DNA from: a virus
Taxonomy: Duplodnaviria; Heunggongvirae; Uroviricota; Caudoviricetes
DNA length: 64,000 bases
Direction: 5' to 3' (one strand)
Virus record (IMG/VR): IMGVR_UViG_2576861193_000004
Span: 1-64,000 of that record
Of this stretch, positions 3,863 through 41,174 are shown piece by piece (positions within the stretch are counted from its first letter, which is position 1; each line of letters begins with the position of its first letter). The notes under the pieces are model-generated. The model was not told the origin of the DNA. It saw only the letters and a program-made list of their open reading frames with translations, and did no database searches. The position numbers and the translations under genes are program-made.

Positions 3863-4800
3863 TACCTTTCGAATGGAAGAACAAACACTTCAAGGTCTTC
3901 AAGGAACGAACGGAAATTCAGCTCGTAGCACAGTTGCTCGAATGCTTTCACGTCACGATTGCCTTTGATTGTTTCGATTTCGGTAGGCGGAAACTTCGTC
4001 TCAATCAGGTTCATTAGCGTGATGTTTCTCTTGAACGCTTCGAGCATTCGACAGCCTGTTTTCTCGTTGAAGGCATTCTTCGCTAGTTTGTTGAAGGCGG
4101 TCTTATGGCGTCCTTTGTCAACCACGATTGAGCCGTCGTTGATGCCGCGTACCATCGTTGCGACACTTCCCCATTCATGCAGCAGCTCTTTCGCACCGCC
4201 AGCACCAATGCCACCAACACCGCTAATGTTGTCCGATTTATCGCCTTGTAATGCTTTTGCTTCCAAAAATGCGCGAGGAGTAGCGAATCCTGTCAGCTCC
4301 GCAAATTGCTCAAAATTAACCTGCTTGTTTTTGGCGTCTTCGCGCAGGCTTACCCAGCTTACGTTTTCGCGAACTAACTGAAGCCAGTCGCTATCGCCTG
4401 TTAACAGATAGATGTGTTCAACGGTTGGCTGCGGTGCCATGCGGGATACCAGCAGCCCGGCCAGATCATCCGCTTCTGCATCTTTTGCAATGAGTTGGGT
4501 AACTCCAAGCGCGGTCATCATTTTGAGGATGTATGGCTTCTGGATAGCAAAGCCTTCCTTCATCTTTTTCATATCAGGATCGTCGTCGCGATTTGCCTTG
4601 TAGTCCGGGTAAAAGTCGCGACGCTTGTCACTAAATCCATCCCAAAGAATCATAGGTCGGGCATGGAGGATGGAGGCATAACGACGGACGTTCTTAACAA
4701 AGCCGAAAGCAGCCTGTACTTCCATTTCGCCGTTGTGCAATTTGTCAGATTGTTGGTGGTAATAACCCAGGCTATTGCCATCTACGAAGAGATAATTCAC
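3856..4800 (-). CDS. 5'-3' exonuclease / flap endonuclease (FEN, T5 D15 / RNase H-like)
   Basis: VDGNSLGYY N-terminal motif, GDSDWLQL, and H3TH motif GVGGIGAGGAKELL. Start moved to GTG at 4800 (GGAAGG Shine-Dalgarno 9 nt upstream) because the track start at 4851 overlaps the upstream terminator hairpin. Confidence 0.85.
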   Translation of the reverse strand: MNYLFVDGNSLGYYHQQSDKLHNGEMEVQAAFGFVKNVRRYASILHARPMILWDGFSDKRRDFYPDYKANRDDDPDMKKMKEGFAIQKPYILKMMTALGVTQLIAKDAEADDLAGLLVSRMAPQPTVEHIYLLTGDSDWLQLVRENVSWVSLREDAKNKQVNFEQFAELTGFATPRAFLEAKALQGDKSDNISGVGGIGAGGAKELLHEWGSVATMVRGINDGSIVVDKGRHKTAFNKLAKNAFNEKTGCRMLEAFKRNITLMNLIETKFPPTEIETIKGNRDVKAFEQLCYELNFRSFLEDLEVFVLPFERYC

Positions 4801-4815
4801 CGGTACATTCCTTCC

Positions 4816-4850
4816 AAAAAGTAAGGCGTCCGTAGACGCCTTACTGGTCA
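4816..4850 (-). terminator. rho-independent terminator after the SSB gene
   Basis: Perfect 10-bp stem gtaaggcgtc / gacgccttac with a 4-nt loop, followed on the minus strand by TTTTT. Confidence 0.7.
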
Positions 4851-4860
4851 CGTAATGGGA

Positions 4861-5889
4861 TTACAGAGAGTCCAGCTCTCTCAGTAGGTCATCCAGACCT
4901 TCATCTTCCGTCGCAGATGCGGTTGCTACAGATGTCGCTGCGACTGCTTCAGACTCTTTGACTGATACGGCAACGGCAGCGGAACTTGCCTCTGGTTTAA
5001 ATTCAGTTTCAACGGCACGGAGGATTTCTTCATCAACCAGACTGGTTGGTTCAGAAGCCGGTGTGTGCGCGGTTGCTACAGCCGTCGCTCCTTCTGTATG
5101 ACCAGTGACAGAGCCAAATCCAGGTAGTGCCGCAGCCGATGTTTTCGCGGTTGAGGAAATTGCTGGTGCAGATGCTGCGGCAGTTGGTGCAGCGATGCCA
5201 ATCAGACGACCCATAGTGCGAACTGTCGACAGAAGACGAGTTTCATCAGCCTGATTTGCGTATGCGATCAGATCATGCTGGGTGTTCCAGAATTTATCTT
5301 CGATATCGCCTTTGTAGACTTTACGCTTAGGCGAGACGTCATATTTGGTATCGCGACCAGAGCCAGTACGTTTAATCAGGAATGCGTAGCCTTCCTCTTT
5401 GCTCAGTGGATTGCCGATATCATCAGCGATGTCTTCGGTGATTGCTTTGCAGATATCATCGAATACAGTAGACGGCAGCTCGATTAACTGGCATTTCTCA
5501 GCATCTGCGAAATCCTCACGAGCAGAAAGAATGCCGTTGACCAGGTAGCGAGGAGTGGCACGCATTTGACCGATGCGTTCTTCCATTGCTTTGTTACCCT
5601 TGTGACGAGCGCGACCTTCCATCACCATTTCGCATAGCTGACAAGCGCGACCATGAGTATGTTGCTCACAAATATAAGCGATGGTTGCTTCTTTACCTTC
5701 CTCGTTCTGATACTTAACGTAGTGCATACCGAAAGTCTGGAAGAACTTACCGTTTGGGTCGTCCTTATTCGGGAAGATACGGATATAGTTGACGCCATCT
5801 TTTAAGCGAGTCAGATCAACGTTGTTACCACGTTTGGCGGCAATGTCTTCACGAGTTTTGTTAAGCAAATCAAGTAATGTCTTAGACAT
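4861..5889 (-). CDS. single-stranded DNA-binding protein, T4 gp32-like (putative)
   Basis: YIRIFPNK resembles the gp32 IRFLPSK region; Cys/His cluster CEQHTHGRACQLC (possible zinc site); Ala/Ser-rich linker and acidic C-terminus DEGLDDLLRELDSL typical of SSB tails. By-eye similarity only. Confidence 0.5.
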   Translation of the reverse strand: MSKTLLDLLNKTREDIAAKRGNNVDLTRLKDGVNYIRIFPNKDDPNGKFFQTFGMHYVKYQNEEGKEATIAYICEQHTHGRACQLCEMVMEGRARHKGNKAMEERIGQMRATPRYLVNGILSAREDFADAEKCQLIELPSTVFDDICKAITEDIADDIGNPLSKEEGYAFLIKRTGSGRDTKYDVSPKRKVYKGDIEDKFWNTQHDLIAYANQADETRLLSTVRTMGRLIGIAAPTAAASAPAISSTAKTSAAALPGFGSVTGHTEGATAVATAHTPASEPTSLVDEEILRAVETEFKPEASSAAVAVSVKESEAVAATSVATASATEDEGLDDLLRELDSL

Positions 5890-6006
5890 GTGTTTCTCCT
5901 TGTTGTGATTTGGCCGATGGCGCTATGCGCGTTGGGCTTTCGTTCATTCGTGGCTCTTTCGAGCTGTTAAATGATAGATCAGCACTTACTTATTATCTAT
6001 CAAAAA

Positions 6007-6438
6007 TCAACGGGGAGTAATAAAGCGTTCAGAGCCTAATCGCTCTAATTCAACGATGGCCATCTTTGACGCCTGAACGATCATGTCTCGGCGATGCGAA
6101 AAGGCGGCGACAGCATGTTTGTATATGTCTGCGATGTGCCGTGCTTCATCCAACTTCTGCCGTTTAGACAGATACTGTGGGTTTGTTTTAACCTTAGCGT
6201 CCAGTACAGACTCGTTGAACTTAATGCCGTTCATACTCAAGTTCTTACGCTCTGTGTCGTATAGCTTTGCTTCAACAGCTTCAAGGTTAAGTTTTGCCTC
6301 TGCGACATCTCGATCTGCCTGCGCTAGTTTTGACCCATACTCCATTAAAAGCCGTGGCTGTTTACGCCATACTTCCTCAAGGTTGTCGCGGTCGAACTCC
6401 AGATCGGCCATGATTTTAGAAAAAATATCAGTGTTCAC
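6007..6438 (-). CDS. hypothetical protein, possible UvsY-like recombination mediator
   Basis: 143 aa, predicted helical; position next to the recombinase, FEN and SSB genes and weak pattern resemblance to T4 UvsY (137 aa). Not verified. Confidence 0.35.
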   Translation of the reverse strand: MNTDIFSKIMADLEFDRDNLEEVWRKQPRLLMEYGSKLAQADRDVAEAKLNLEAVEAKLYDTERKNLSMNGIKFNESVLDAKVKTNPQYLSKRQKLDEARHIADIYKHAVAAFSHRRDMIVQASKMAIVELERLGSERFITPR

Positions 6439-6645
6439 TCTAATAGGTTCCTACTTATAAAATCTGTATCAATTATATCAAACAGAGAACGGGTTTATGG
6501 CGTCATGTCAACTTTGTTCAGGGGAAGATATTGAGATCACCGAAGATAATTAGTTGTCTTATTTTGGTAAGCTGTGCTGACCATCTTTAGGTCACATACA
6601 TGAGATGGATGGGGTGTGGCATGAACGGATGAAATTCAGTCGCCG

Positions 6646-6674
6646 TTGACAGATGTCAACACTGTGAATAGAAT
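6646..6674 (+). promoter_or_regulatory. sigma70-type promoter with a palindromic overlap (TTGACAgaTGTCAA)
   Basis: TTGACA (6646..6651), 17-nt spacer, TAGAAT (6669..6674), then GGAGG Shine-Dalgarno and ATG at 6692; the -35 lies within a perfect 6-bp inverted repeat that could be an operator. Confidence 0.5.
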
Positions 6675-6691
6675 ACCATTATCGGAGGCGA

Positions 6692-6916
6692 ATGAAGCAA
6701 CATCCGAATAAGCATATTCAAGCAGCCATTGACTATGCATTAAGTAAAGGCTGGATCTGGGTAGCTGCTGGTGGTGCTGCACATTGTTTTTGCAGACTGC
6801 GATGCGGTAATCCAGAAGGTGAACACAAAACTCACCAAATGAGCGTATGGTCGACTCCGGGTAATCCCGAAAACCATGCCAAACAGATCAAACGAATGGT
6901 TGATCGTTGTAAATGA
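6692..6916 (+). CDS. small moron protein, weakly HicA-like (YcfA family?)
   Basis: 74 aa with KGW...GGAAH...P...IKRMV pattern loosely resembling HicA toxins; has its own promoter and terminator. Family assignment is tentative. Confidence 0.3.
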   Translation: MKQHPNKHIQAAIDYALSKGWIWVAAGGAAHCFCRLRCGNPEGEHKTHQMSVWSTPGNPENHAKQIKRMVDRCK

Positions 6917-6920
6917 TTTC

Positions 6921-6945
6921 AAGGCGGCATTAGCCGCCTTTTGCA
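6921..6945 (+). terminator. rho-independent terminator
   Basis: Hairpin aaggcggc-atta-gccgcctt followed by TTTG, 5 nt after the stop of the 74-aa gene. Confidence 0.55.
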
Positions 6946-6976
6946 GAAACTGTCCAACTATCTTCAAAGGAAAACT

Positions 6977-7540
6977 ATGGCGCTTTATAACTTCACTCTG
7001 ACGCTCTCAGGCGTATCGTATGAGACGGAAGGACTGGAAGACGCGCTGTACCAAAACGGCTGTGACGATGCGCTAATTTGCGCATATGGAAACTCCGTCT
7101 ATGTAGAATTTGACCGCGAAGCACAATCACTTGATGCAGCTATCGCATCTGCGGTCGACAATATTGAATCAGCCGGTATCGGTGCAATTGTTGAATCCGT
7201 CGACTCGGCTCTTGTGGGCTTAAGCGATATCGCGGAACTGACAGACCTGTCTCGCCAGGCAGTGGCGTTGCTCAAAGACGGTAAGCGCGGAAGCGGCGAC
7301 TTCCCTTGCCCTGTACAACGCATAAAAGGCCAGTCTCCTCTCTGGGATTGGGCTGATGTGGCTGAATGGCTCATGAATAACGGACGACTTAAAGAGGGCG
7401 ATCAAATTGTCCAAAATGCCCGAACTTTGAGTAAATGGAATCTGGCGCTTCGAAACAGCGTCTCGAAAGATTTCAACGAAATAGAGCAAATTGCGGAGAA
7501 ACTGATTAAACGCCGCAAAGATATTGCGAAATGCGCATAA
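6977..7540 (+). CDS. putative DNA-binding protein with central helix-turn-helix
   Basis: ATG at 6977 with AAGGA Shine-Dalgarno (track start 6941 is TTG); segment GLSDIAELTDLSRQAVALLKDGKRG looks like an HTH; N-terminal domain of unknown fold. Confidence 0.4.
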   Translation: MALYNFTLTLSGVSYETEGLEDALYQNGCDDALICAYGNSVYVEFDREAQSLDAAIASAVDNIESAGIGAIVESVDSALVGLSDIAELTDLSRQAVALLKDGKRGSGDFPCPVQRIKGQSPLWDWADVAEWLMNNGRLKEGDQIVQNARTLSKWNLALRNSVSKDFNEIEQIAEKLIKRRKDIAKCA

Positions 7541-7656
7541 TGATGCCCGCCAATTGGCGGGCATCTGTTCTCTGTAAAGGTGTCTGGCATCGTCTGGTTC
7601 GTTAACGTTTACTAAACCAATGGTGACAAAAATTAGTTATCTTTGAAAAATAAAGG

Positions 7657-7685
7657 TTGCATGAAAAGAAGGGGTATGCGTTAAT
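7657..7685 (+). promoter_or_regulatory. cspA-type promoter
   Basis: TTGCAT -35 and GTTAAT -10 separated by 17 nt, AT-rich upstream element; closely resembles the E. coli cspA promoter (TTGCAT / CTTAAT). Confidence 0.5.
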
Positions 7686-7691
7686 AGCATC

Positions 7692-7869
7692 GTTGGTTTG
7701 CAAGACAGACCTTATGTAAGCAGTTTTAGTAAAGCAGTCTCAGTTCAGTGTTATCTTCTGATTTCCCTTCTTCGTGAGTCTCCTCCTTAAGTGCCTAAGT
7801 AAGTCCCAATCTATACAGATCAAATTCTCGCCGCACTATGTGGCTCACAAAATTAAGAAGGTAATATCT
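7692..7869 (+). promoter_or_regulatory. long cspA-like 5' untranslated leader (candidate RNA thermosensor / cold box)
   Basis: About 178-nt leader with segments resembling the E. coli cspA leader (CAGACC, AAAGCAG, GTAGTAA, AAGGTAATA before the ATG). Compared from memory. Confidence 0.45.
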
Positions 7870-27867: not shown

Positions 27868-28225
27868 AACCTTTCTTCATCAACTCTCGTTTGATTTCAT
27901 CGGTACGCATCGTGACATCGGCAGCGGTGATCGCCTCATTCAATTTCACGATGTCCTCGATTTCCTGCGGTGACTTCTCTGCCAGATGGAAAATGGCTGC
28001 TCGAATCACGTCAGAACGAGTGAACTTCTCGAAGCGAGGGATGAACTTCATCATCTCCAGCAGTTCGAAGTATTCGTCCTCCAGTGACATTGTGCGGCTT
28101 TTAATTTTCTCTTTGCCACGAGTCGGGCGTCCCTGTGGTCTGACTGGTTGGCGCAAAGGAGTTGTGTTCTTAGCCGGTGCATCAGGCTCTTTGCGCTTTG
28201 CTAGGTCACCCATTTTCATGGACAT
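27866..28225 (-). CDS. small basic partner of ParA (ParG-like, putative centromere-binding protein)
   Basis: 119 aa, basic N-terminus; gene start abuts the parA stop. Role inferred from position. Confidence 0.4.
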   Translation of the reverse strand: MSMKMGDLAKRKEPDAPAKNTTPLRQPVRPQGRPTRGKEKIKSRTMSLEDEYFELLEMMKFIPRFEKFTRSDVIRAAIFHLAEKSPQEIEDIVKLNEAITAADVTMRTDEIKRELMKKG

Positions 28226-28893
28226 TATTCTTCTTCCTCCAGACTCAACAGATAATCTACAAATTCTTCAAACTCGGCTTCCGCCTTTTTGTCGCGCTCG
28301 CTACCGGTCATTTCAAAGATAGAACGACCAGACTCTTCCGCATCATCATAGACGTTGCGGTTATACAGATTGACTGGCGCAGACTCGATTCCAAACGTCT
28401 CAACAATCTCTTTAGCCGCCAGAATGCGAGACACTTGTGATGGCAAAGCCGGACACTGGTTCATGACCGCGCGGACCTTCACTTTATCGTTTACATTGCG
28501 AACATTGTCGATAATAGGATCGATGTCACGTAAAGATTTCAAATCACGACGCTTAGGACGCAGCGGGATAATGATAACGTCAGCCATCAGCATCGCTTGT
28601 CGCTGAATTTCGGAGTCGAAGCCACCAGCATCTACCACTACAAACTCAGCTCTACCCTGAAGCGATTTTAGGTGCTTAATGATGTCATCCTGAACGTATG
28701 CAAAAGGAATCAGCTCAAGGTCTTCGTTCTGTCGACGGTCTTCACACCAGCTCGTTGTCGTGCGCTGAATATCTATATCGGTAATATAAACCTTCTTCTT
28801 CTTTTTGACTTTCAGGCAAACGGCAATTTGCTGGGCAACGGTGGATTTGCCAGGCCCGCCCTTTGTGCCGCCAACCACAAAGATCTTGGTCAT
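28225..28893 (-). CDS. parA: ParA-family partition ATPase (small type Ib)
   Basis: Deviant Walker A KIFVVGGTKGGPGKST at N-terminus, 222 aa. Confidence 0.85.
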   Translation of the reverse strand: MTKIFVVGGTKGGPGKSTVAQQIAVCLKVKKKKKVYITDIDIQRTTTSWCEDRRQNEDLELIPFAYVQDDIIKHLKSLQGRAEFVVVDAGGFDSEIQRQAMLMADVIIIPLRPKRRDLKSLRDIDPIIDNVRNVNDKVKVRAVMNQCPALPSQVSRILAAKEIVETFGIESAPVNLYNRNVYDDAEESGRSIFEMTGSERDKKAEAEFEEFVDYLLSLEEEE

Positions 28894-29488: not shown

Positions 29489-30010
29489 GTGAGCAATACA
29501 ACGATAGAGATTTTCTCTGGAGAGAAAGATTATGATCTAAACGGTTTTGATTGCGGCGAAGAGTCACTAAACGCCTTTTTAGCCAACCACTTAAAAAGGC
29601 AGCATGAGGGAAAAATTCTTCGTGCTTATGTGCTTTGCACTCAAGAAGAAAGGCCAAAAGTGTTAGGATATTACACTTTGTCAGGTAGTTGTTTTGAAAA
29701 GGAGTCCTTACCTTCAAGAAGCAAACAAAAGAAGGTTCCTTATCGGAATGTTCCAAGTGTTACTTTGGGTAGGCTGGCTTTGGACAAGTCCCTTCAAGGT
29801 CAAGGATTTGGCTCAATGCTTGTAACACATGCAATGCGCGTTGTGTACAATGCATCTCTTGCTGTAGGCATTCATGGACTTTTCGTTGAGGCGTTAAATG
29901 ACAAAGCCAAGGCGTTTTATAAAAGTTTAGGCTTTATCCAGCTGGTTGGTAACAACGAGCGTTCTTTGTTCTATCCTACAAAATCTATCGAAAAATTGTT
30001 CGAAGAATAA
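29489..30010 (+). CDS. GNAT-family acetyltransferase toxin (TacT/AtaT-like)
   Basis: 173 aa, GNAT motif A LQGQGFGSMLV; starts 8 nt after the antitoxin stop. Family members acetylate aminoacyl-tRNA. Confidence 0.85.
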   Translation: MSNTTIEIFSGEKDYDLNGFDCGEESLNAFLANHLKRQHEGKILRAYVLCTQEERPKVLGYYTLSGSCFEKESLPSRSKQKKVPYRNVPSVTLGRLALDKSLQGQGFGSMLVTHAMRVVYNASLAVGIHGLFVEALNDKAKAFYKSLGFIQLVGNNERSLFYPTKSIEKLFEE

Positions 30011-30431: not shown

Positions 30432-31151
30432 TTAGACCATCCCTTTCTGGTGTTTTCTTACCTGCGACCAGGCAATGAATCCTGCCACAACAATAGTGGC
30501 AATACCGAAGATGATGCGTACTGTATCCCCGCTAGAGATATGACCTTGTGCTTTATCCATAGCAGCGGAAACCTGCGGCATAACATCGGCCAGCTGCGCC
30601 AGACCAATACCTGCTGTAACAGTTGCGCCTGCGGTTTCTTTAGTTACAGGAACAGCCTTCACGGTTTTCACCGGCTTAACAACGCCAGCTCGACGCAGAC
30701 CTTCCTCAATAACTTCTGCCGCATACCAGGTGTTCAGCGTTTTTAGCGGGCCTCGGCCATTCTCGTGGCGAATGATTGCCTCAACCAAAGGTCGAAGGAT
30801 GTCGTAATCATGCAGATCGATGATCATGTCTGCGGTTACACCAACGGCTTTAGACACCTCATTAATGTAGGCGTCAGTATTGTTTTCATTCGGCGGTGCC
30901 CAGCGTTCAATAACTTCACGAATGGTATCGATACTTGTGCCGTCTTTTGCGCGACGTTTATCGTGGTAGGTAATTAGAGTCACCGCCAGCGCACGAATCC
31001 CCCAAACAGGGTCTTTAAACGTGCAAAAGCGCGGTTCGTCTGGATTCGCAACCAGACCTTGCCACGGTGATCCTTTATCAAGATTACCGGGGTTATTATT
31101 ACGAATGCCTCTCGGAGTTTTCATCCTTGATCTCCTGTTATTGCAGTCCAC
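30432..31151 (-). CDS. putative cell-wall hydrolase / endolysin with C-terminal transmembrane helix
   Basis: 239 aa with GIRNNNPGNL motif near the N-terminus and C-terminal hydrophobic segment IIFGIATIVVAGFIAW; assignment rests mainly on position between holin-like and spanin-like genes. Confidence 0.35.
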   Translation of the reverse strand: MDCNNRRSRMKTPRGIRNNNPGNLDKGSPWQGLVANPDEPRFCTFKDPVWGIRALAVTLITYHDKRRAKDGTSIDTIREVIERWAPPNENNTDAYINEVSKAVGVTADMIIDLHDYDILRPLVEAIIRHENGRGPLKTLNTWYAAEVIEEGLRRAGVVKPVKTVKAVPVTKETAGATVTAGIGLAQLADVMPQVSAAMDKAQGHISSGDTVRIIFGIATIVVAGFIAWSQVRKHQKGMV

Positions 31152-31473: not shown

Positions 31474-31594
31474 GAAAAGTCAAATCGGGATGGCGTGTTT
31501 ATATCATATTTTAACCATTTGTAGTAGGTATGTACTTACCTACTATATATCTTGCAAACTAATCGTTGTTAATAATGCAGATATAATCTGCCCC

Positions 31595-32176
31595 TTACTC
31601 TGCTGGTATTGTTGGCCACTCAATATCAGGTGCAGTTGATGTATCAACACGGTTCAGCAACACCCGATACTTTTTCCAGGCTTCCAGCAATGAGTTTTCT
31701 TCCTCCGTTGCGATTTCCAGATCTACAGCATCCTGAAGTGGCGCAATATGCTCACTGGCTACCTGCATCAGGTTGTTTTTTGTTTCTTCCGCCTCCCGGA
31801 TCCGGAACAGTTTTTCTGCTTCCGTATCCTTCAACCAGGCTGTGCCGTTCCACTTCTGATATTCCCCTTCCGGCGATAACCAGGTAACATTTTCCGGTAA
31901 CGGACCGAGTTCAGAAATAAATAACGCGTCGCCGGAAGCCACGTCATAAACCGTTTTACCCCGATGATCTTCAACGAGATGCCACGATGACTCATCACTG
32001 TTGAAAACAGCCACGAAGCCAGCCGGAATATCTGGCGGTGCAATATCGGTACTGTTTGCAGGCAGACCTGTATGAGGTGGAATATATGCGTCACCGTCAC
32101 CAATAAATTCATTAGTTCCGGACAACAGATTATAAATTTTTATGGTCCGTGCTTGTTCACTCATTCTGAATGCCAT
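31595..32176 (-). CDS. tfa: tail fiber assembly protein (Tfa, lambda Tfa / T4 gp38-like)
   Basis: 193 aa; start overlaps the stop of the fiber gene; typical Tfa layout and sequence character. Confidence 0.8.
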
Positions 32177-35100
32177 TATGCAAGCCTCACAATATAGTTA
32201 AATGCGATGTTTTTGACGGTGTTTTCCGCGTTACCAGCAGCGTTAACGGTGATGGTGTGTCCATGTGAGCCAATCGCAACCGAGTGCGTATGCGCACCAA
32301 TACCTACAGTATGTGCATGTGCGCCAGAACTTGCTGCAGTACCAGACAGCGAGTGGGTATGAGCACCTGCTGACTGTGTCTGAATACGTTGATAATACGA
32401 TCTACTGGAAGAAGTCCCCGGGCTTACTTGATACTGTGAATCCTGGACATAAGTGAACCCACCGCCATCATAAAATGCTAACGCAGAACCGCCGCCTCCT
32501 GGCCAACGAATACCATTACCATGAGTATGAGCACCGGCAGCCCCCGTAGAGCCACTCAGACTGTGCGTATGCGCCCCGGTGTTATTCGTGGATTTAGTGC
32601 CGTAATCAAACGACGATGTGGTTTTCGTCCCCAAATCCGTACTGGATGCGCTGGCGCTGTGGGTGTGCGATTTAATGCCGTCCTGTTCCTGAGACAATAC
32701 GGCGCGACCACTGGCAGGTTTGCCCTTAATCGTCCAGCCACGCATATCAGGGATCACGCCTGACGGATAAGCGGCTGCAAGTTTCGGGTAAGCAGATTTG
32801 TCAAAAGTCTGCCCCTGCATCAGGGCATAGCCAGACGGAACGGTATCTGATGGCCACGGGATTGGTGCACCGACTGGATAAAACTCTGCAGGAGGATGAG
32901 CCGAGGTGTAAAGCTGCGCCCACGGCGACCAGTTTGCGTCGGTCGTATCCCGTCGTGAACGAATAAATGCCGGAGCATGAGCACCGCTTGTACCACTCCA
33001 GCCAATTAGCAACTCTCCCTCACCAGCAACTCTCGCACCTTTCATGTGCAATACGTTGCCATACGTGGTCGGGTAGCTATTGTTGTACGCCTCGTACATT
33101 TGAATGCCAGCAGTGCCTTGAGTAGAGCCGCTTAACGCCGTAACTTGGCCACGAGATACCAATGTATTAATGTTGATATCGCCTGAGCCATCAAACTTAA
33201 CACCATTGATGTTTCTCGCTGTTTGCAACTTCGTAGCTGTTGAAGCATTACCGTTCAAACTACCATTTACGCCACCAGTCACATTTAGTCCATTACCGAT
33301 CGTAACAGCACCATTGGCATTGTTAATGATAAGCGGCCTTAAACTATTCCATGATCCAAGATTGTCACCCGAGGCGGTCAACATGAAGTATGTGTTTGAA
33401 CCATCGTTTCGGATAAAGAATCCGTAGTTTCCGCAGACAATGCGCAGACCATTCGCCGATTTTGAAATGATCTCACCAGAAGATGTCAAACCTCCAGATA
33501 ATGTACCACCGGTAAGAGGTAATGCACCGACATCAGAGGCTGTTGGTTTGTTTTTCGTGTTATATACTCTTCGCCATCCTGGAGAATAATCTGTGCCATT
33601 AAATACATAGATAAACTCCGCATTAGTGAGAGCACCAGAGACACTCGTCGTTGTGGCCGTTGTTATACGGATCGTATAATTGTTTGAGCTACTACCGTTA
33701 TTAAATACCTCTATAACAGCTCCTGCCAATGGAATAACGCCACAACCAGTTTCACTATTTGGTATGGTTGCACTATTGGCATAGGCCCACGCACATCGAG
33801 CAATCCATGACCTTGTGGTAAACGCGCCGTTATTTTGCAATAACGTCACTAACTGTGCTGTTGTTATTGCTCCGCCATTACTTCCTGTAGTTAACCAACC
33901 AGTAGGAGATGCCGGGCAACCTATATCGGCAGGCCCCAACGATATATTTCTTGTGCCATCAAACGCAATACCGTTGATGGTTCTTGCGGTTTGCAACTTC
34001 GTAGCAGTAGCCGCGTTGCCCGTTGTATTCTGATTACCAGTCGTATTAACACCTGGCAAATTAATATTCGCAGTACCATCAAAGCTCACGCCGCCGATAG
34101 TTCTTGCCGTCTGAAGTTTTGTAGCAGTTGCAGCATTACCAGTGGTGTTCTGATTACCCGTAGTATTTACACCTGGAAGGTTGATATTTGCAGAACCGTC
34201 GAAACCAACTCCACCGATAGATCTTGCCGTCTGCAATTTCGTTGCTGTACTTGCATTACCATTTAATGTTCCGGTGATCCCACCAGTAACAGACAACGGA
34301 CCTGAAACTGTTCCTCCGGTTGTTGGCAGTGCACCAATATCTAACGGCGTCGGTTTCTTATGTGTGCTATACATCGTATAAACAACACCATCGGTAACGC
34401 TGGAAGGCTTACTCGCTGAATATGTTGGCGATGTATAAATAGAAACTGTCGCATTTGCAGTACAATCCCAATGGATATTTACACTAGTCGCATAATTGCC
34501 AATCTCAACGTAAATATCATATGTATCGCCGGATGTGTTGATCCAGGCGAAATTCGTTAATCCGACGGCTGTACGCTTCCACAAAGCCCCGGTAATTCCT
34601 TTGGGCATTCCATTGCCTGCTCGTAGAACCAGTTCTGAAATGCCTGCCTGTTGAGGTGACCCCACGTTAAATCCCGCGCCACCAATCAATGCGATGTAAA
34701 CGATGGAACTATTTTGTGGCATGGTAACCGTAGCCAGTTTGAACCACCCAGCCCCGCCAGAGAAAGACATCGTTATTGAATTTAAAGTACCAATATCTTT
34801 CGGCGTTAATGTGATATCCGCAGTCAGTGCTTTCCCGTTAATTTTTCGGTTAGATGGCACCCTGCTGTTCGCATTGTCATTGACTACTTTAACTGCTTTT
34901 GGCGTTGCGGCCAGCGATTCACTGGTGCTGTCGACAGCACTGCTAAGTTTCACAACACCTTTAGTTGTAAGGCTTGCGTCTTCCATCGCAACTGCACCGG
35001 CAATCTCTTCAGCACGATCAGCAGCAGCTTCCGCACGGGTCGCAGCGGATTCAGCAGCAGTTTTGCTCTGAGATGCTGCCGTCGCACTGCCAGCTGCCTC

Positions 35101-36348
35101 TGTCGCCTTCGTGGATGCCGTCGTGGCGCTGCTCTTCGCTGCTGACGCCTGTCTGGTCGCCTCATCTTTTGAAGCAGACGCCGATGATGCCGATGACGCC
35201 GCCGAACTGGCGGACGATGCGGCTGCCGTTTTTGAGGATTCTGCACGGGTTTCCGACGCTTTCGCGTTCGTTTCGGATGTCTTCGCTGCGGAAGCAGACC
35301 TCGCTGCTGCGCTGGCCTGTTCAGTGGCTTGGCCAGCCTTCGTTGTGGCAGTTGAAGCAGACGATGCGGCACTTTCTGCCGATTTTCCGGCGGCGGTGGC
35401 ACTGGCTGAGGCCTGCCCGGCACTTGTTGACGCGGCACTGGCAGACGACGCAGCCGCTGTTTTTGAGCCTGCCGCAGCCGAGGCGCTCTGTCCCGCTGCC
35501 GTTTCAGAAGACCTGGCGTTCGTCTCGGACGTTTTTGCCGCCTTCGCGGAATTTCCTGCCGCCGTTGCCGAGGAAGCGGCATTACTGGCGCTCGAGGCTG
35601 CGCTCGTTTCTGATGATTTCGCTGCCTCTTTTGAGGCCGCCGCATCCCGGGCTGAGGTGGCAGCTTCTGACGCCTTCGTGGTCGCGGTGGATGCAGAAGT
35701 GGCTGCAGATTTTTGTGACGCTGCAGCATTCGTTTCAGATTTTTTCGCATCAGTTGCACTCGCACTTGCGGCACTTTGTGAGGATGCCGCAGCGGATGCA
35801 CTTTGAGACGCTTGAGAGGCTTTTTCTCCAGCGGCATTGGCGCTTTTTGCTGCTGCGGCAGCACTGGCCGCCGCCTCACGAGCTTTGTCGCCAGCAGCAT
35901 CAATCGCGTCAGTGTTATTTTTATACCACTCAACGTTTTCGTTGTGCTCGTTGACGATCTGCATTAGCGGCTTAACGGTCACTTCTGTACCGTCTTCACG
36001 CTCGATTGTCACCTCATCCAGCGCAGTCAACCAACTGCGTATGGACTTGGAATCAGCCGACATACGCGACATTAGCGCAGTAAAGCGCGCGCTAAACTGT
36101 GTTAAGTCGCCTTCATAGGTCGTAATGATTCGGCACGGAACTTCAGACTGAGTTTCGCCGGTATAAGGTTCTGAGAGAACAATGTTCGTATCACTGGTTA
36201 CGCGCTTGATCTCATACAGCTTATTGTCGGGGCCAATGACGATCATCCCCGGCAACACACCATTAGCTGTTACGTTCCAGGCTGTCCCTGCCCCAACCAG
36301 AGTATTGCTGCCCTGTGTAAATGTGATAGTACCTTCCCTGTACCACAT
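32176..36348 (-). CDS. stf: side tail fiber protein (Stf-like) with Ala/Ser-rich rod and Phage_fiber_2-type repeats
   Basis: 1390 aa; repeated units [40 protein letters not shown]; C-terminal His-rich GAHTHS repeats typical of T4 gp37 / lambda Stf distal regions. Confidence 0.85.
33930..34330. repeat. tandem DNA repeats (about 111 bp units) encoding fiber repeat motifs
   Basis: Three near-identical consecutive units visible in the DNA within the fiber gene. Confidence 0.7.
34990..35900. repeat. low-complexity GC-rich region encoding the Ala/Ser/Thr-rich fiber segment
   Basis: All six frames are open here (spurious ORFs 34950..35933, 34974..35954, 35111..35806) because of biased GCN/TCN codon composition. 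Confidence 0.8.
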
Positions 36349-36440: not shown

Positions 36441-39400
36441 TCACAGACGGCCAATTCTTACTCGTAAGACGTTGTTATCGTCATAAACGTCAATCCGCTG
36501 ACCATTTATAACCAATCGCCCATTGCCGCCGCTATTACCGTTGATCTCCAGCGTTCCATTTTTGCCGAACCGCCATCCAGATCTACCGCTAACAAAATTG
36601 GTAGATTGCAGATCGCCTACTTTTGCATTGGTGATTGTGCCATCCTTGATATACGCTCCATTCATATAGGCGATACTGTTTTCGATAACAAATGGCGTTG
36701 TGATCTTCCCGTTAACAGAGTTGACCAAACCAAACCTGTCCGCCTGAACCAAAAACTGAGATAGCCCAGTGGTGTCAATACCAAGCGCAATACCGGCAAC
36801 ATACTTCTGCCCTCCGCTCGTTGAAGTCTCCATTTTCAACGTCCACGCGGTTGATACTTTTTTGTTGGTATCAGCAATAGCTGTTGCCTGCTGTTGAATT
36901 GTCGCGGTATTTCCATCCACCTCTGCTTTCAGAGTATCGATTCGCCCACTCAGAGCATTATCTGCCTGCGTTCTCGCTGTCGTTTCAGTTGTTACCGCCG
37001 CGGAAATGTTGGCTGCCGTTTGAGACTCTAAGTTTGTGATTTGAGTCGCCAATGCAGCATCTTGCTCTGTACGCGTTTTCGTTTCGGTTGCTACAGCCGC
37101 TTTAATATCCTCTTTGTATTGAGAGGTCAGCTTGGTGATCTGAGACGACAACGCCGAGTCAGCATCAGTTCGAGCCTGCGTTTCAACTGCAACGGCCGCA
37201 CTAATATCTTTCGCTGTCTGTGCTTTTAAACTTGAAACCTCTTTTGTTAAAGCGGTATCACCATCTGCACGAGCCGTTGTTTCTCTGGCAAGAGACGCCT
37301 CGAGATCATTAGCTTTTGCTGTAAGAGACGTAATCTGGGTAGACAATGCACTATCGGCATCAGTCCTTGCTTTTGTCTCTACAGCAACCGCTGCGGCAAT
37401 ATCAGTTCCGGTTTGTGCTCGCAGGCTGTTAATTTCTCGTGAGAGCGCCTGGTCAGCACTTGCCCTGGCCTCCTGCTCCTGAGTGATGGCAGCGGATATA
37501 TCACCGTCAACCTTTGACTGAAGCTGGTTTATTTGTTTGGCTAACGCAGAGTCCCCGCTTGCTCGAGCCTCCTGCTCACTACGTATTGCAGCAGAAATAT
37601 CATCATCAACCTTTGCCTGAAGTTGGGTGATCTGGCTTGCCAGAGCCGAATCTTCCGTTGCTCGGGCTTCTTGCTCTTCCTTAATAGCTGCGACGATATC
37701 GTTGCTTACTTTCGACTCAAGCTGAGTGATCTGTGTCGTCAGAGCTTCATCGGCAGATGTACGAGCCTCCTGCTCTGTACTAATCGCCGCGCTGATATCT
37801 CCTTCAAACTTAGATTGCAGCTGAGTGACACGCTTTGCCAACGCTTCATCGCCATCGGCACGAGCGGTGGACTCTTCCAGAATACTGGCCTTAATGTCTT
37901 CGCCAATTTCTACGCGAATTTCCTCAACCTTCGTGGCCATTGCAGACATATCATCAGCAAAGGTTTTCTGTGTTGTTGCGATCTTCGCGTTATTGACCAT
38001 CTGCTTGTGCTGGTCTTCATCTTGACGAAGAGCCAGGTCAATATTTGTTTTGGCTAACGCCTCAATGTTCGTAGTCAGTTCTGCACTGGCACGATCGACC
38101 TCTGCAACCGTCTTTTTCATTTCTTCAACGGCAGCGGAGCTTTCCTCTACCGTTGACTGCAACACTTCCAGTTGTTTAGCGTTTGCAGCATCGCCTTCAA
38201 CACGAGCCTCGCTTTCCTTAGCAATAAGAGCCGCCGCTTCATCTCTTGCAGCCTTTATTGCCTCGACTGTATTAGCGAGAGCTTTATCGTGTTCAGATAC
38301 GGTGTTTTCGATTTCAACAATTGCAGCATCAGTAGCATCAATTTTTTCAAACGCTTCATTGACCTTGTCGATCGTTGCCGAAACCTCACCTTTAAGCTCG
38401 GTTTGTGCGTTCTCCAAAGCATCGCTACGCTCGTTGAATTTTATTTCAAAATCCGCGAGGTTATCGCTGAACTGCTTATCTAATTCAGCTATATCTTCCT
38501 TAACGTCGTTTACCGACCCCTCCAAAGATTCGACGCTCTGGTTGATATGCTCATTTAACTCGTCAACTGCTTCTTGAGAGGCTTTGCTGTTGATGTCCTC
38601 AAGCAGAGCCTGACCAAGCTCGGAAGATGTAATTTTGCCAGTCAGGAACGACAGTACATCGCGAGTTGTCGCCTCTGTACCCAAGTTTGAGTTCGGAGGA
38701 CTTAACATACCTCGCTTGTTCGATGCTCGAACCCAGTAATACCACGTTTCGCTATCCCCAAGACCAGCATGTGTAAAGGTGGTGCTTGCAGACTCTGCGA
38801 TCAGTTTCGCCGTATCCAGATTGTTGGTCTGGGATGCGTAAACATTAATGTGATCAAGGTCTACCGAATCTGGATTAACCCAATTCAGTATCACATTACG
38901 ATAGTCTCCAACGGCCGTTAATGACGTTGGGGAATCCGGCGGTGTCATTGTGCCCAACACCTGATAAACGGTACTGATAATCTCTGTTTTTTTACCGTTG
39001 AATGAAACCGCATACAGCTGGAAGTCGTAGCGTCCATTCTCCGCGACATTAACGATTTCGTATTGCTCTTCGGTTACACGCGCCGATTGCCAGTTCGATA
39101 CATTGTTTTCATCAGAACGTCGCCAACTGATCCAATACTCTGGAGATTTCCCTTCCCATGTTGCAGTCAGTTTTACTGACAGGTTGCCAGGGCTTGAGAG
39201 ATAAGTCCCTTCGGTGATTTGCAAATTAGACGGCTTGGAGTAAGTCGGGTCCAATACCGTCGTATTCTGCGGGATAAGCGTTGCACCATTGTCGATTGCC
39301 TCATATTTAGACGGATTGTTCTCAACAGCGGTGATGTCAAAGCTACCCGGCGTTTCCCCCTGCGCGATGTTAACGATGCGAACGCGCATAGGTTCGAGAT

Positions 39401-41174
39401 CTGGTTCTGTAATAGTCCAGACGCCGTTCAAAACAGGCGTTTCAGCCGAAGACAGGGATTTTGAAAACGTAACTTTTGTTATATTTTCGCCAGTTTCAAG
39501 AACATCGCGTTCAACGATTTTGCCTTCATGATTCAGTATTCGAATAAAGCAGCCGCCTTTGGCTAACGACACCGGCGCATCGAGTGTGACGCTGTTTTTG
39601 GTAAACGCCACAATTCGACCTGAGTTACGTTTGCCTGCGCGATATTTGTTCTGAATCAGAACGGTTTCACCAGGCATCAGAAATGACGCGTCTAAGCCGG
39701 CAGTAAATGTAATTACATCCGACTCCATTCTGGCGGTATATAAAAGCCACAAACCAACTCGGTGAGCCTGCCCTCGGCTTGTACAGCCAAATGCTACGAC
39801 TTCTGTCTTACGCTCACCATAACGGCGCATTGCGTCCTGATCTTCAACGTACTCGATGTTTTGCTTATAACCGTCCTCCTTGTTGTTGTAGGTTACGAGC
39901 GCAACGGATGGGCGATCTTTACGCGCAGAACCTTTATAGGTAAACAATCCATCTTTGACGTTAGAGTTGGTAAACATCATTACCGGATCTGATGGGCTAT
40001 CCTGCATGATGTTAACCATGCCACCAGCCCAAAACACCATACCGCGGAATGCACCGGCAATATCCTGAATTAGTCGGTATGCGTCCTGTCGACTGGTGAT
40101 CTGCGTATTGATTGCAAAGCGTTTCTCTTTGCCACCAAAGCCATCATCGACCTCTTCGTCACAATATCGACCAATCTGGTACAACTGGCCAAGGTCAATC
40201 ATAGATTCCGACACATACTGACCAAGGCCATATCGAGCATTGGTCAGCAAATCAAAGAGAATCCACGCGGGGTTCGAAGAAGACAACAGCTTAAAAGTGC
40301 CATCCCATACCCCAGCGTAAGTGTTACTGGACTCGTTATAGTTTGAAGGTACTCGAATTTTTAGGCCACGCACCAGATAAGAGCGAGATGGCATGGTGCT
40401 GCCGAATTGCTCAGAGTTTACCTTCAATCCAACTAAAACAGAGTTTGGATAGTTCATCGGTGTATCGACAATTTCCCCGATTGAATCCACCCATGTATCG
40501 TTATAGAGATACTGGCTACTGTTATCATCGGTAATACGGACTACACGAACCTTGTATGCGCGTCCAGGCTTAGGCAGCTTCAGCTCGTAGCTACGGTAAT
40601 AAACGCCGGTCTTCTTTGCTGTTAGCTTAATGCCAACGCTTTTTTCACCTTCCGCGACCACATCTACAAATGTTGAGTCGCCATTTGCTATCTGGAACTT
40701 GTACTCAACAGTCGTACCGTTCGTGTCACCAGTTTTTTTATCTATGCTTCGCAAAGAAGGAAACTTCATGATGACACGAACCCGATCAGCTTCATCGTTA
40801 TCGATTGAAACCGTTACATAATGTGTTTTTTTTAACTGGATATTGACGGATTTAGGCGTTTCAACGAAATCAAAGCCAGACATTGGAGTCTGGTCTTGTG
40901 AACCGTCGCGAAAATCCCATGTGATTCCGCTGAAGTTGGAGGAACCGTCTTCATTTACAATCGGCAGATCGTCGATAAAAATAGATCTTGCGCCATTTAC
41001 TAAGCCGCCAATTACCCCTTCCCCAAGAAGATCGAGGATAGCGGCCATTGCACGAGAATTTACGGTATCGTCGGCTTCAACCGGTGTACGGCTGGAGCTT
41101 TTGCTGCTTTTTTTACCACCCGCACCGGCAATAAACAGCGGTAGCTTTTTCTTCTTGAACTGTTCCATGTTCAA
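36441..41174 (-). CDS. central tail fiber / host specificity protein (lambda gpJ-like) with embedded coiled-coil repeat rod
   Basis: 1577 aa; N-terminus resembles lambda J; about 13 tandem 32-aa repeats (ISAAI..EQEAR...D.AL..QI.QL.SKV). Confidence 0.85.
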   Translation of the reverse strand: MNMEQFKKKKLPLFIAGAGGKKSSKSSSRTPVEADDTVNSRAMAAILDLLGEGVIGGLVNGARSIFIDDLPIVNEDGSSNFSGITWDFRDGSQDQTPMSGFDFVETPKSVNIQLKKTHYVTVSIDNDEADRVRVIMKFPSLRSIDKKTGDTNGTTVEYKFQIANGDSTFVDVVAEGEKSVGIKLTAKKTGVYYRSYELKLPKPGRAYKVRVVRITDDNSSQYLYNDTWVDSIGEIVDTPMNYPNSVLVGLKVNSEQFGSTMPSRSYLVRGLKIRVPSNYNESSNTYAGVWDGTFKLLSSSNPAWILFDLLTNARYGLGQYVSESMIDLGQLYQIGRYCDEEVDDGFGGKEKRFAINTQITSRQDAYRLIQDIAGAFRGMVFWAGGMVNIMQDSPSDPVMMFTNSNVKDGLFTYKGSARKDRPSVALVTYNNKEDGYKQNIEYVEDQDAMRRYGERKTEVVAFGCTSRGQAHRVGLWLLYTARMESDVITFTAGLDASFLMPGETVLIQNKYRAGKRNSGRIVAFTKNSVTLDAPVSLAKGGCFIRILNHEGKIVERDVLETGENITKVTFSKSLSSAETPVLNGVWTITEPDLEPMRVRIVNIAQGETPGSFDITAVENNPSKYEAIDNGATLIPQNTTVLDPTYSKPSNLQITEGTYLSSPGNLSVKLTATWEGKSPEYWISWRRSDENNVSNWQSARVTEEQYEIVNVAENGRYDFQLYAVSFNGKKTEIISTVYQVLGTMTPPDSPTSLTAVGDYRNVILNWVNPDSVDLDHINVYASQTNNLDTAKLIAESASTTFTHAGLGDSETWYYWVRASNKRGMLSPPNSNLGTEATTRDVLSFLTGKITSSELGQALLEDINSKASQEAVDELNEHINQSVESLEGSVNDVKEDIAELDKQFSDNLADFEIKFNERSDALENAQTELKGEVSATIDKVNEAFEKIDATDAAIVEIENTVSEHDKALANTVEAIKAARDEAAALIAKESEARVEGDAANAKQLEVLQSTVEESSAAVEEMKKTVAEVDRASAELTTNIEALAKTNIDLALRQDEDQHKQMVNNAKIATTQKTFADDMSAMATKVEEIRVEIGEDIKASILEESTARADGDEALAKRVTQLQSKFEGDISAAISTEQEARTSADEALTTQITQLESKVSNDIVAAIKEEQEARATEDSALASQITQLQAKVDDDISAAIRSEQEARASGDSALAKQINQLQSKVDGDISAAITQEQEARASADQALSREINSLRAQTGTDIAAAVAVETKARTDADSALSTQITSLTAKANDLEASLARETTARADGDTALTKEVSSLKAQTAKDISAAVAVETQARTDADSALSSQITKLTSQYKEDIKAAVATETKTRTEQDAALATQITNLESQTAANISAAVTTETTARTQADNALSGRIDTLKAEVDGNTATIQQQATAIADTNKKVSTAWTLKMETSTSGGQKYVAGIALGIDTTGLSQFLVQADRFGLVNSVNGKITTPFVIENSIAYMNGAYIKDGTITNAKVGDLQSTNFVSGRSGWRFGKNGTLEINGNSGGNGRLVINGQRIDVYDDNNVLRVRIGRL
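36950..37900. repeat. tandem about 96-bp repeats encoding the coiled-coil heptad repeats of the J-like protein
   Basis: Periodic recurrence of near-identical DNA segments; generates spurious antisense ORFs (37041.., 37623.., 38050..). Confidence 0.7.

Follow-up and report, generated by a model that had tools for sequence, protein, structure and literature searches.

The side tail fibre of phage lambda, gpStf (split into orf-401 and orf-314 in lambda PaPa), was described in Ur-lambda in 2025 by a combination of electron cryo-microscopy, electron cryo-tomography and AlphaFold3 modelling as a trimer in which residues 102-393 form a trimeric proximal coiled coil (PMC12617516). Related fibres are found in phage SSU5 (SSU5_021) and in E. 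coli SSU5-like elements such as Cyrano, and further homologues of individual domains in the fibres of T4, Mu and P1. A 64,000-nucleotide (nt) stretch of a Caudoviricetes virus (IMG/VR record IMGVR_UViG_2576861193_000004, positions 1 to 64,000; this whole stretch is referred to as the window) carries a gene which a first-pass annotation, made without database searches, had called a side tail fibre with an unusual alanine/serine/threonine-rich segment. Judged from its sequence matches, this is the side tail fibre gene of an SSU5-like phage-plasmid, situated between a J-like tip gene and a Tfa gene, and its Ala/Ser/Thr segment very probably forms a rigid proximal shaft in a trimeric fibre.

When compared with lambda gpStf, the fibre encoded here was found to be alike in its position after J, its Ala/Ser coil, the PF03406 motif which caps the coil, a tip bearing HxH motifs and a tfa gene overlapping its stop codon; the orf-314 tip also shares the same C-terminal sequence with the tip here. 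It differs from lambda gpStf in its N-terminal anchor (SSU5-type here, StfN/PF08400 in lambda), in the number of coil heptads by a count of Ala at position a (44 here, 32 in lambda) and in the ~650 amino acids (aa) of additional distal shaft between cap and tip (a distal-shaft domain, 40-aa units and a domain of T4 gp34 type), which take the place of the short hinge and distal segment of lambda. SSU5_021 and the E. coli SSU5-like fibres share the anchor, a coil of 45 (SSU5) or 43 heptads, the GGAGWFKL domain and tandem 40-aa motifs, and the SSU5-like relatives are the same type of genome, namely non-mobilizable plasmids of ~100-115 kb carrying phage genes. In contrast to SSU5-type fibres, most of the coil here (from ~aa 175-200) is lambdoid, and the tip and chaperone are of the lambda/T4-gp37 type, whereas in the nearest plasmid, L003 (RefSeq NZ_JBWDPP010000001), the distal shaft is longer and a 'receptor-recognizing protein' is encoded separately, and in SSU5 a 'tail fiber adhesin' is found. 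T4 gp37 (PDB 2xgf), T4 gp34 (PF21446) and the Mu/P1 S fibres (5yvq, 8ju3) are homologous in sequence to the tip, trimerisation domain and cap, but lack a long Ala/Ser coiled-coil shaft, and the T4 fibre is spread over four proteins. For every element of the fibre a counterpart has already been described in lambda, SSU5, T4, Mu or P1.

The interval 33930-35900 lies wholly within a single open reading frame (ORF), 32176..36348 on the minus strand (Table 1), whose product matches phrog_3299 and other tail-fibre PHROGs and is 50% identical to SSU5_021 over 780 aa. NCBI already contains an identical protein, named 'tail fiber protein [Escherichia coli]' and encoded on contigs of 106-113 kb. A search of the whole protein against NCBIfam matched no family. 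Upstream, on the same strand, is a gene for a 1577-aa lambda-J-type tip/central-fibre protein (PF24801, PF13550, PF09327), and the genes follow the order of a lambda-type tail module: TMP (tape measure protein), L, K, I, J, Stf and Tfa (Phage_tail_L; NlpC/P60-JAB for K). At the DNA level the fibre gene matched non-mobilizable E. coli plasmids of ~100-115 kb with phage genes, together with phages Cyrano and SSU5, and on account of these matches we take the element for an SSU5-like phage-plasmid whose side tail fibre is encoded by this gene. The naming of the gene in the first-pass annotation was therefore borne out by the J-like gene upstream, the Tfa gene downstream and the homology to both lambda Stf and the SSU5 fibre.

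The Ala/Ser/Thr segment (aa 152-459) contains 121 Ala, 72 Ser and 31 Thr residues (73% of its 308 aa) and three large hydrophobic residues, and has a GC (guanine plus cytosine) content of 0.61, compared to 0.48 for the remaining gene and 0.47 for the window. The segment had been described as GC-rich, correctly, and as being of low complexity, whereas it is a strict array of 44 heptads. No stutter interrupts the heptad table, in which position a is Ala in 43/44 heptads, position d Ser in 33/44 and position e Ala in 30/44. The Fourier power of Ala at a period of 3.5 was 30.8-32.8, against a maximum of 10.7-11.4 among 200 shuffled sequences, and Ser was strongly periodic at 7.0 (0/200 shuffles reached the Ala or Ser periodicity). 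Charged residues, which had been singled out as the periodic component, were not significantly so, the best observed value being matched by 23/200 shuffles. The pattern is far beyond chance and is a strict heptad, neither generic low complexity nor disorder.

Structure prediction of the segment had been proposed as a check, and an AlphaFold2 monomer model of aa 130-520 (12-sequence alignment, mean predicted local distance difference test score, pLDDT, of 64.8) was helical over aa 131-462, stopping exactly where the heptads end. Sustained heptad periodicity and helical propensity, which together mark a coiled coil, were thus both found. Pfam returned no family at E <= 1 for the coil alone, while several tail-fibre PHROGs span it. 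Small Ala core residues packed in a parallel trimer are known from the alanine-zipper trimeric coiled coils, for example variants of Lpp-56. The Ala core is alike here, the differences being Ser at d and the length of 44 heptads; no sequence relationship is claimed, and a literature search on 'alanine zipper' yielded nothing directly usable. Papers retrieved in a full-text search for peptides at engineered insertion sites of lambda Stf were all irrelevant.

A number of points weigh against the interpretation of the segment as a trimeric coiled-coil shaft. Confidence in the AlphaFold2 monomer was moderate only and the model contains a single helix break, which is probably an artefact of modelling a monomer; this coil has no solved structure, and no PDB entry matches aa 152-459 in sequence; and a core of Ala and Ser, with only three large hydrophobic residues along the 308 aa, is not typical of stable coiled coils. 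Both the trimeric state and the parallel orientation proposed for the coil rest by analogy on the Ur-lambda work, in which the coil is itself an AlphaFold3 model fitted to tomograms and not atomically resolved (PMC12617516), and the N-terminal anchor here differs from the StfN domain of lambda.

We nevertheless regard the proximal-shaft reading as very probable, and the fibre would be built as follows. The SSU5-type N-terminal domain would anchor the protein to the tail tip, and a parallel alpha-helical coil of 44 heptads, with a core of Ala (a, e) and Ser (d), would space the distal part away from the tail. With an alpha-helical rise of ~0.148 nm per residue, 308 residues would give a rod of ~45 nm if the coil is canonical. 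The coil would be capped by the PF03406 motif and followed by a distal shaft of 40-aa fibre-motif units, expected to be beta-structured, and the gp34-type trimerisation domain. The terminal tip, of the gp37/lambda-Stf type, has seven HxH motifs, as in the gp37 needle, and would bind a receptor on the host surface with Tfa assisting its folding; that the tip depends on Tfa is suggested by the adjacency of the two genes. The lambda fibre is a homotrimer whose outer-membrane receptor is OmpC.

The coil is not unusual, contrary to the first-pass annotation, as it matches DNA in most E. coli genomes and 1662 proteins (E <= 0.001) in a phmmer search of 1.84 billion cluster representatives. It corresponds to the proximal rod of Ur-lambda gpStf, and against lambda orf-401 BLASTP gave 72% identity over 148 aa and 55% over 185 aa. 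A megablast search with the 924 nt of coil DNA found matches in 4076/5426 complete E. coli genomes (75%), with at least 80% of the query covered in 2889 and up to seven places per genome, nearly all of them in chromosomal prophages, in genes such as stfR which carry the annotation 'prophage tail fiber N-terminal domain-containing protein'. As the segment is the well-known lambda-type shaft and the protein was already public, it carries little weight as a discovery. Two further similarities of the coil were recorded. A patch of 116 nt (coil nt 265-380; 35516-35631) shows 78% identity to ltf, the gene for the L-shaped tail fibre of T5 and related Salmonella phages, and giant proteins of 2500-3900 aa from a metagenome library (P0157, P0173, P0260, P0170, P0168) contain 29-44 heptads with Ala at a, Ser being dominant at d in most of them (0.64-0.78; 0.45 in P0168).

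Table 1. Coordinates of the fibre gene, its parts and associated features within the window.
Feature	Coordinates	Strand	Extent and basis
Side tail fibre gene (stf-like)	32176..36348	-	1390 aa; ATG at 36348, stop 32176-32178; ORF list
N-terminal anchor domain, SSU5 type	35917..36348	-	aa 1-144; SSU5 fibre N-terminus near-identical in protein, 73-74% in DNA (nt 1-741)
Ala/Ser coiled-coil shaft	34972..35895	-	aa 152-459 (308 aa); 44 unbroken heptads A-x-x-S-A-[S/T]-x
Left edge of lambdoid stf homology	35804..35826	-	gene nt ~522-545, aa ~175-182, inside the coil; in-register recombination junction, SSU5-type/lambdoid-type
PF03406 (Phage_fiber_2) cap motif at coil end	34852..34974	-	aa 459-499; Pfam E 4.5e-19
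Distal-shaft domain (GGAGWFKL.../IALIGGAG...)	34261..34851	-	aa 500-696; kept in the SSU5 fibre; matches phrog_21552
Three tandem 40-aa units	33931..34260	-	aa 697-736, 737-776, 777-~806; Tandem Repeats Finder period 120 nt at 33976-34261, 2.4 copies, 75% matches
T4 gp34-type trimerisation domain	33325..33630	-	aa 907-1008; PF21446 E 1.5e-31; PDB 5yvq (Mu S), 4uxe and 5nxf (T4 gp34)
Fourth, dispersed motif copy	33157..33252	-	aa 1033-1064; regular expression and pairwise comparison
Receptor-binding tip (putative)	32179..32883	-	aa 1156-1390; PF07484 Collar and T4 gp37-like needle, seven HxH motifs
Swapped cassette, tip and tfa	31611..32912	-	96% identity to phage 204576 by local blastn
Tfa tail fibre assembly chaperone	31595..32176	-	start overlaps stf stop; PF02413 E 8.6e-44; phrog_105 E 1.2e-99
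Antisense ORF, 231 aa	35111..35806	+	openness expected from composition (P = 0.23); by-product
Second antisense ORF, 326 aa	34974..35954	+	TTG start; more open than composition predicts; not conserved

Outside the coil and the repeats, the protein alignment to SSU5_021 starts at residue 1, and upstream synteny is also shared with SSU5. Pfam gave no match for aa 1-151, and the StfN/PF08400 domain, which in lambda forms a dodecameric collar on the tail, was not detected there; in the lambdoid homologues PF08400 occupies the N-terminal place, and the N-terminus of the fibre does not align with the lambdoid one. The cap motif is also present in structures of the Mu fibre protein S (8ju3, 5yvq) and aligns to residues 352-394 of lambda Stf, immediately ahead of the lambda hinge (394-422). 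The distal-shaft domain (aa 500-696) had no sequence match in Pfam or PDB, and in plasmid L003 the fibre gene carries a second copy of it downstream (L003:6591-7037 against 34349-34795, gene nt 1554-2000; 73% nt identity).

The rod had been described as prone to slippage and the repeats as likely recombination substrates for host-range change. Length does vary, as the first-pass annotation had anticipated, and the conservation across all relatives that would have spoken against it was not found. In-register heptads were counted in 267 homologues, and the arrays of relatives, always in register, ranged from 12 to 60 heptads: complete arrays with an SSU5-type N-terminus had 13, 26, 28, 43, 45 or 60, and those with a lambdoid (PF08400) N-terminus had 12, 31-33 (32 in lambda) or 47-48. 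This distribution of counts is biased, because one set of homologues comprised just proteins of <=909 aa, many of them partial; a search of representatives added longer complete ones. Such differences (13-60 heptads in SSU5-type and 12-48 in lambdoid arrays), a fibre-motif copy number that also differs between relatives, and database entries which frameshift within the coil and continue in an open alternative frame (P0016, P0193, P0208, P0220) are what would be expected of a hypervariable, slippage-prone rod of the contingency-locus type, with tandem 40-aa repeats recombining for host-range change. This explanation is nonetheless considered very unlikely, as the coil DNA contains no meaningful tandem repeat (Tandem Repeats Finder returned trivial rows only) and its longest exact direct repeat, of 12 nt, equals the expectation from codon-shuffled sequences (mean 11.9). 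Throughout the whole gene there were no exact intragenic repeats of at least 14 nt except for one 17-mer. The closest plasmids (~60) and the closest complete genomes (56, a set which overlaps with the plasmids) aligned in one piece over nt 1-3435/3444 with no net length change, and high-identity tandem DNA repeats with a unit number varying among close relatives, as in a contingency locus, were not found. Furthermore, two SSU5-type coils of 64-69% nt identity, with third positions 36-40% identical, still have exactly 43 heptads; that the number is kept despite near-saturated synonymous divergence points to selection on rod length. Shorter coil variants resemble deletions or patchwork between recurrent AAK(T/S)SETNA stretches.

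The fibre repeat was confirmed as three tandem copies, together with a dispersed fourth, with a period of 40 aa and not the 37 first reported. The tandem units do not directly follow the Ala-rich segment, as had been stated, but begin 237 residues past the coil end, with the PF03406 cap and the distal-shaft domain in between. PF03406 itself was considered as an identity for the repeat and rejected, since its match is to the coil cap at aa 459-499 and not to the units at aa 697-806, a region for which Pfam gave nothing at E <= 1. A profile search with the motif matched tail fibre gp47 (PDB 8vbx; E 1e-5) and the C-terminal stalk of phage L Dec (6e3c; E 8.8e-5), and on these matches the repeat is a widespread fibre-shaft motif. 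In relatives the number of tandem copies is 1-4, and the total reaches 7. Between units 1 and 2 identity is 90% in aa but 76% in nt, their longest common exact run being 12 nt, a pattern which fits an old duplication kept by protein-level selection, rather than a hot substrate for intragenic recombination, and which also weighs against a hypervariable locus; the longest exact run shared by any of the copies is 17 nt, too short for efficient intragenic homologous recombination.

The motif does, however, mark places at which fibres differ between elements. The match to phi458 stops within unit 2, at gene nt 2287, and that to P1 starts within unit 1, at nt 2176. The second motif of SSU5 aligns to both the dispersed and the tandem copies, so that aa ~777-1033, which carries Mu-S/gp34-type domains, is a motif-flanked insertion relative to SSU5. 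Breakpoints in or beside the motif fit classical, motif-mediated tail-fibre mosaicism. The view of the repeats as recombination substrates is therefore supported in part, on an evolutionary time scale, by the varying copy number and the position of these breakpoints, and not by the short exact runs (<=17 nt) or the tip swap, which lies elsewhere.

That swap comprises the tip and tfa. The tip matched the T4 gp37 tip (PDB 2xgf) with an E value of 6.5e-81 and is 71% identical over 253 aa to lambda orf-314, the C-terminal part of Stf, and tip and tfa together are 80-93% identical to lambda, mEp460 and a P1-like phage. In the nearest plasmid (97% identity) homology halts at 32903 and resumes at 31539, and the cassette is absent from the closest plasmids; among PLSDB and the complete E. 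coli genomes no record covers >83% of the gene. The swap junction coincides with the start of the gp37-like tip, ~110 aa past the dispersed fourth copy and ~340 aa past the tandem array. From the position of this junction, the host-range-relevant swap which distinguishes the element sits at the start of the tip and not in the repeats.

A second junction lies within the coil itself, which on the alignments is a chimera of SSU5 and lambdoid types. Every lambdoid phage match begins at query nt 522-545, and from ~aa 200 the coil is 98% identical to the lambdoid prophage Stf P0017, compared to 73-77% to other SSU5-type coils. The coil shares 9-14 exact runs of at least 23 nt and 6-9 of at least 34 nt with lambdoid phage and plasmid coils, the longest being 82-128 nt, and is for this reason a substrate for exchange between elements. 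The runs are longer than the minimal pairing segments given for Red-beta (23-27 bp) and RecA (31-34 bp) (PMC3945230), and recombination of lambda with Rac/Qin across stf-tfa has been demonstrated experimentally (De Paepe 2014, PMC3945230). Tail-fibre mosaicism through recombination at conserved motifs is a classical observation (Haggard-Ljungquist 1992; Sandmeier 1992, 1994; Tetart 1998). The present gene is alike in its breakpoints, which lie within the coil, at the 40-aa motif or close to it and where the tip starts, and in its long exact runs shared with lambdoid stf genes; it offers nothing new in kind, the partners here being a phage-plasmid and integrated lambdoid prophages. We suggest that the coil evolves by in-register homologous exchange with E. 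coli lambdoid stf genes and by deletion or duplication of whole heptads, and not by replication slippage. Its evolutionary role is most likely that of a register-preserving homology tract for the exchange of distal fibre modules with resident lambdoid prophages.

The coil DNA had also been reported as open in all frames. Four of the six are open, with stop-free spans across the coil of 4200 nt (the true frame), 1014 nt (same strand, other frame) and 984 and 735 nt (antisense), and the remaining two are closed (36 and 183 nt). Shuffling of synonymous codons indicated that the same-strand alternative frame is open simply from the amino-acid sequence and codon usage. The GC richness entirely, and the open alternative frames with the exception of one antisense frame, are by-products of GCN/TCN/ACN codons.

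The exception is the frame of the 326-aa antisense ORF, the (2,3,1') frame, with 3 stops against 13.9 expected and an open span of 958 nt against a mean of 226 (P <0.001). It is open because the coil is without CT/A codon junctions (the slash marks the codon boundary): these numbered 0 against 10.6 expected from synonymous shuffles, and T/A junctions 1 against 14.5, with a single TA dinucleotide in the 924 nt of the coil. Other genes of the window had observed/expected ratios of 0.8-0.97 for T/A and ~0.35-1.0, mostly 0.6-1.0, for CT/A. Codon usage tied to heptad position was rejected as the cause, as the depletion persisted when heptad position was preserved in the shuffle. The CT/A depletion is common to lambda (0 against 4.3) and plasmid L003 (0 against 9.6) and partial in mEp460 (2 against 8.5), while the counts are at genomic background in SSU5 (8 against 14.1) and in two diverged coils from E. 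coli (7 against 11.3 in one, 9 against 16.3 in the other).

These figures raise the question of whether the coil hides an overlapping antisense gene (34974..35954 or 35111..35806, plus strand) whose frame is kept open by selection. The shortage of stops, the persistence of the CT/A depletion with heptad position preserved and its occurrence in lambda and L003 all speak for such a gene, and antisense ORFs have been annotated in related coils, namely lambda orf206b (L001:748-1368, minus strand), WP_060588921.1 and phi458 Orf45 (L004:2965-3702, minus strand). The frame is, however, closed in diverged coils of the same length, by 7 and 9 stops in the DNA of P0002 and P0008, and by 8 CT/A junctions in SSU5, and mEp460, at 87-89% identity, already has 2 stop-generating CT/A junctions; the depleted alleles are closely related and are therefore not independent observations. 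In addition, the 326-aa ORF has a TTG start and a product rich in Arg, Leu, Pro, Gln and Trp, and the ORF which annotators did call is the 231-aa one, fully explained by composition (P = 0.23), which is the counterpart of lambda orf206b (same antisense phase and position), WP_060588921.1 and an antisense coding sequence (CDS) of L003. As the antisense frame is not conserved among coils, an overlapping gene is unlikely, indeed barely credible, and the 326-aa ORF is most likely not a gene.

The depletion of TA and CT/A is best recorded as a property of one allele family for which amino-acid sequence, codon usage and heptad position do not account. Selection at the DNA or RNA level, either for an open antisense frame or for avoidance of a TA/CTA-specific nuclease or insertion target, would account for it and is highly improbable; a founder effect in one allele family is an alternative cause.

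The composition of the coil misleads gene callers, which place starts at internal Met codons or report an antisense 'hypothetical protein', as with lambda orf206b for decades. In plasmid L003 the fibre frame is intact for 1622 codons, yet the CDS called by PGAP (Prokaryotic Genome Annotation Pipeline) starts at the equivalent of M455 (4363-7869), and an antisense 'hypothetical protein' is annotated inside the coil (L003:3543-4226, minus strand); the cluster of the protein encoded in the window includes truncated calls at internal Met of 1262 and 936 aa (P0272, P0275). Five entries (P0016, P0193, P0201, P0208, P0220) have the fibre start followed by an Arg/Pro/Gln-rich alternative frame of the coil. 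Such entries are frameshift mutations or sequencing errors which went unnoticed since the alternative frame is open.

Among the neighbouring genes, a ParA/MipZ-type ATPase (28225-28893, minus strand) lies just beyond the fibre module, along with a GNAT acetyltransferase (29489-30010, plus strand), possibly the toxin of a toxin-antitoxin pair, and an endolysin/transglycosylase-like protein (phrog_873; 30432-31151, minus strand); these neighbours are consistent with a phage-plasmid. The J-like protein (36441-41174, minus strand) shows in translation ~9 tandem repeats of ~33 aa at ~aa 1000-1400 (DISAAI..EQEAR...ALxxQIxxLxxK), of which Tandem Repeats Finder detected just 2.1 copies of a 99-nt unit at 75% identity (37468-37676); they are probably another coiled-coil extension.

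The discrete classes of heptad number suggest selection on rod length, which is relevant to the engineering of chimeric fibres. In the present element both the coil and the tip and tfa cassette come from lambdoid sources, and a coil which phage-plasmids have in common with integrated prophages of roughly three in four E. coli genomes is a plausible route by which such elements may acquire new distal fibre and tip modules.

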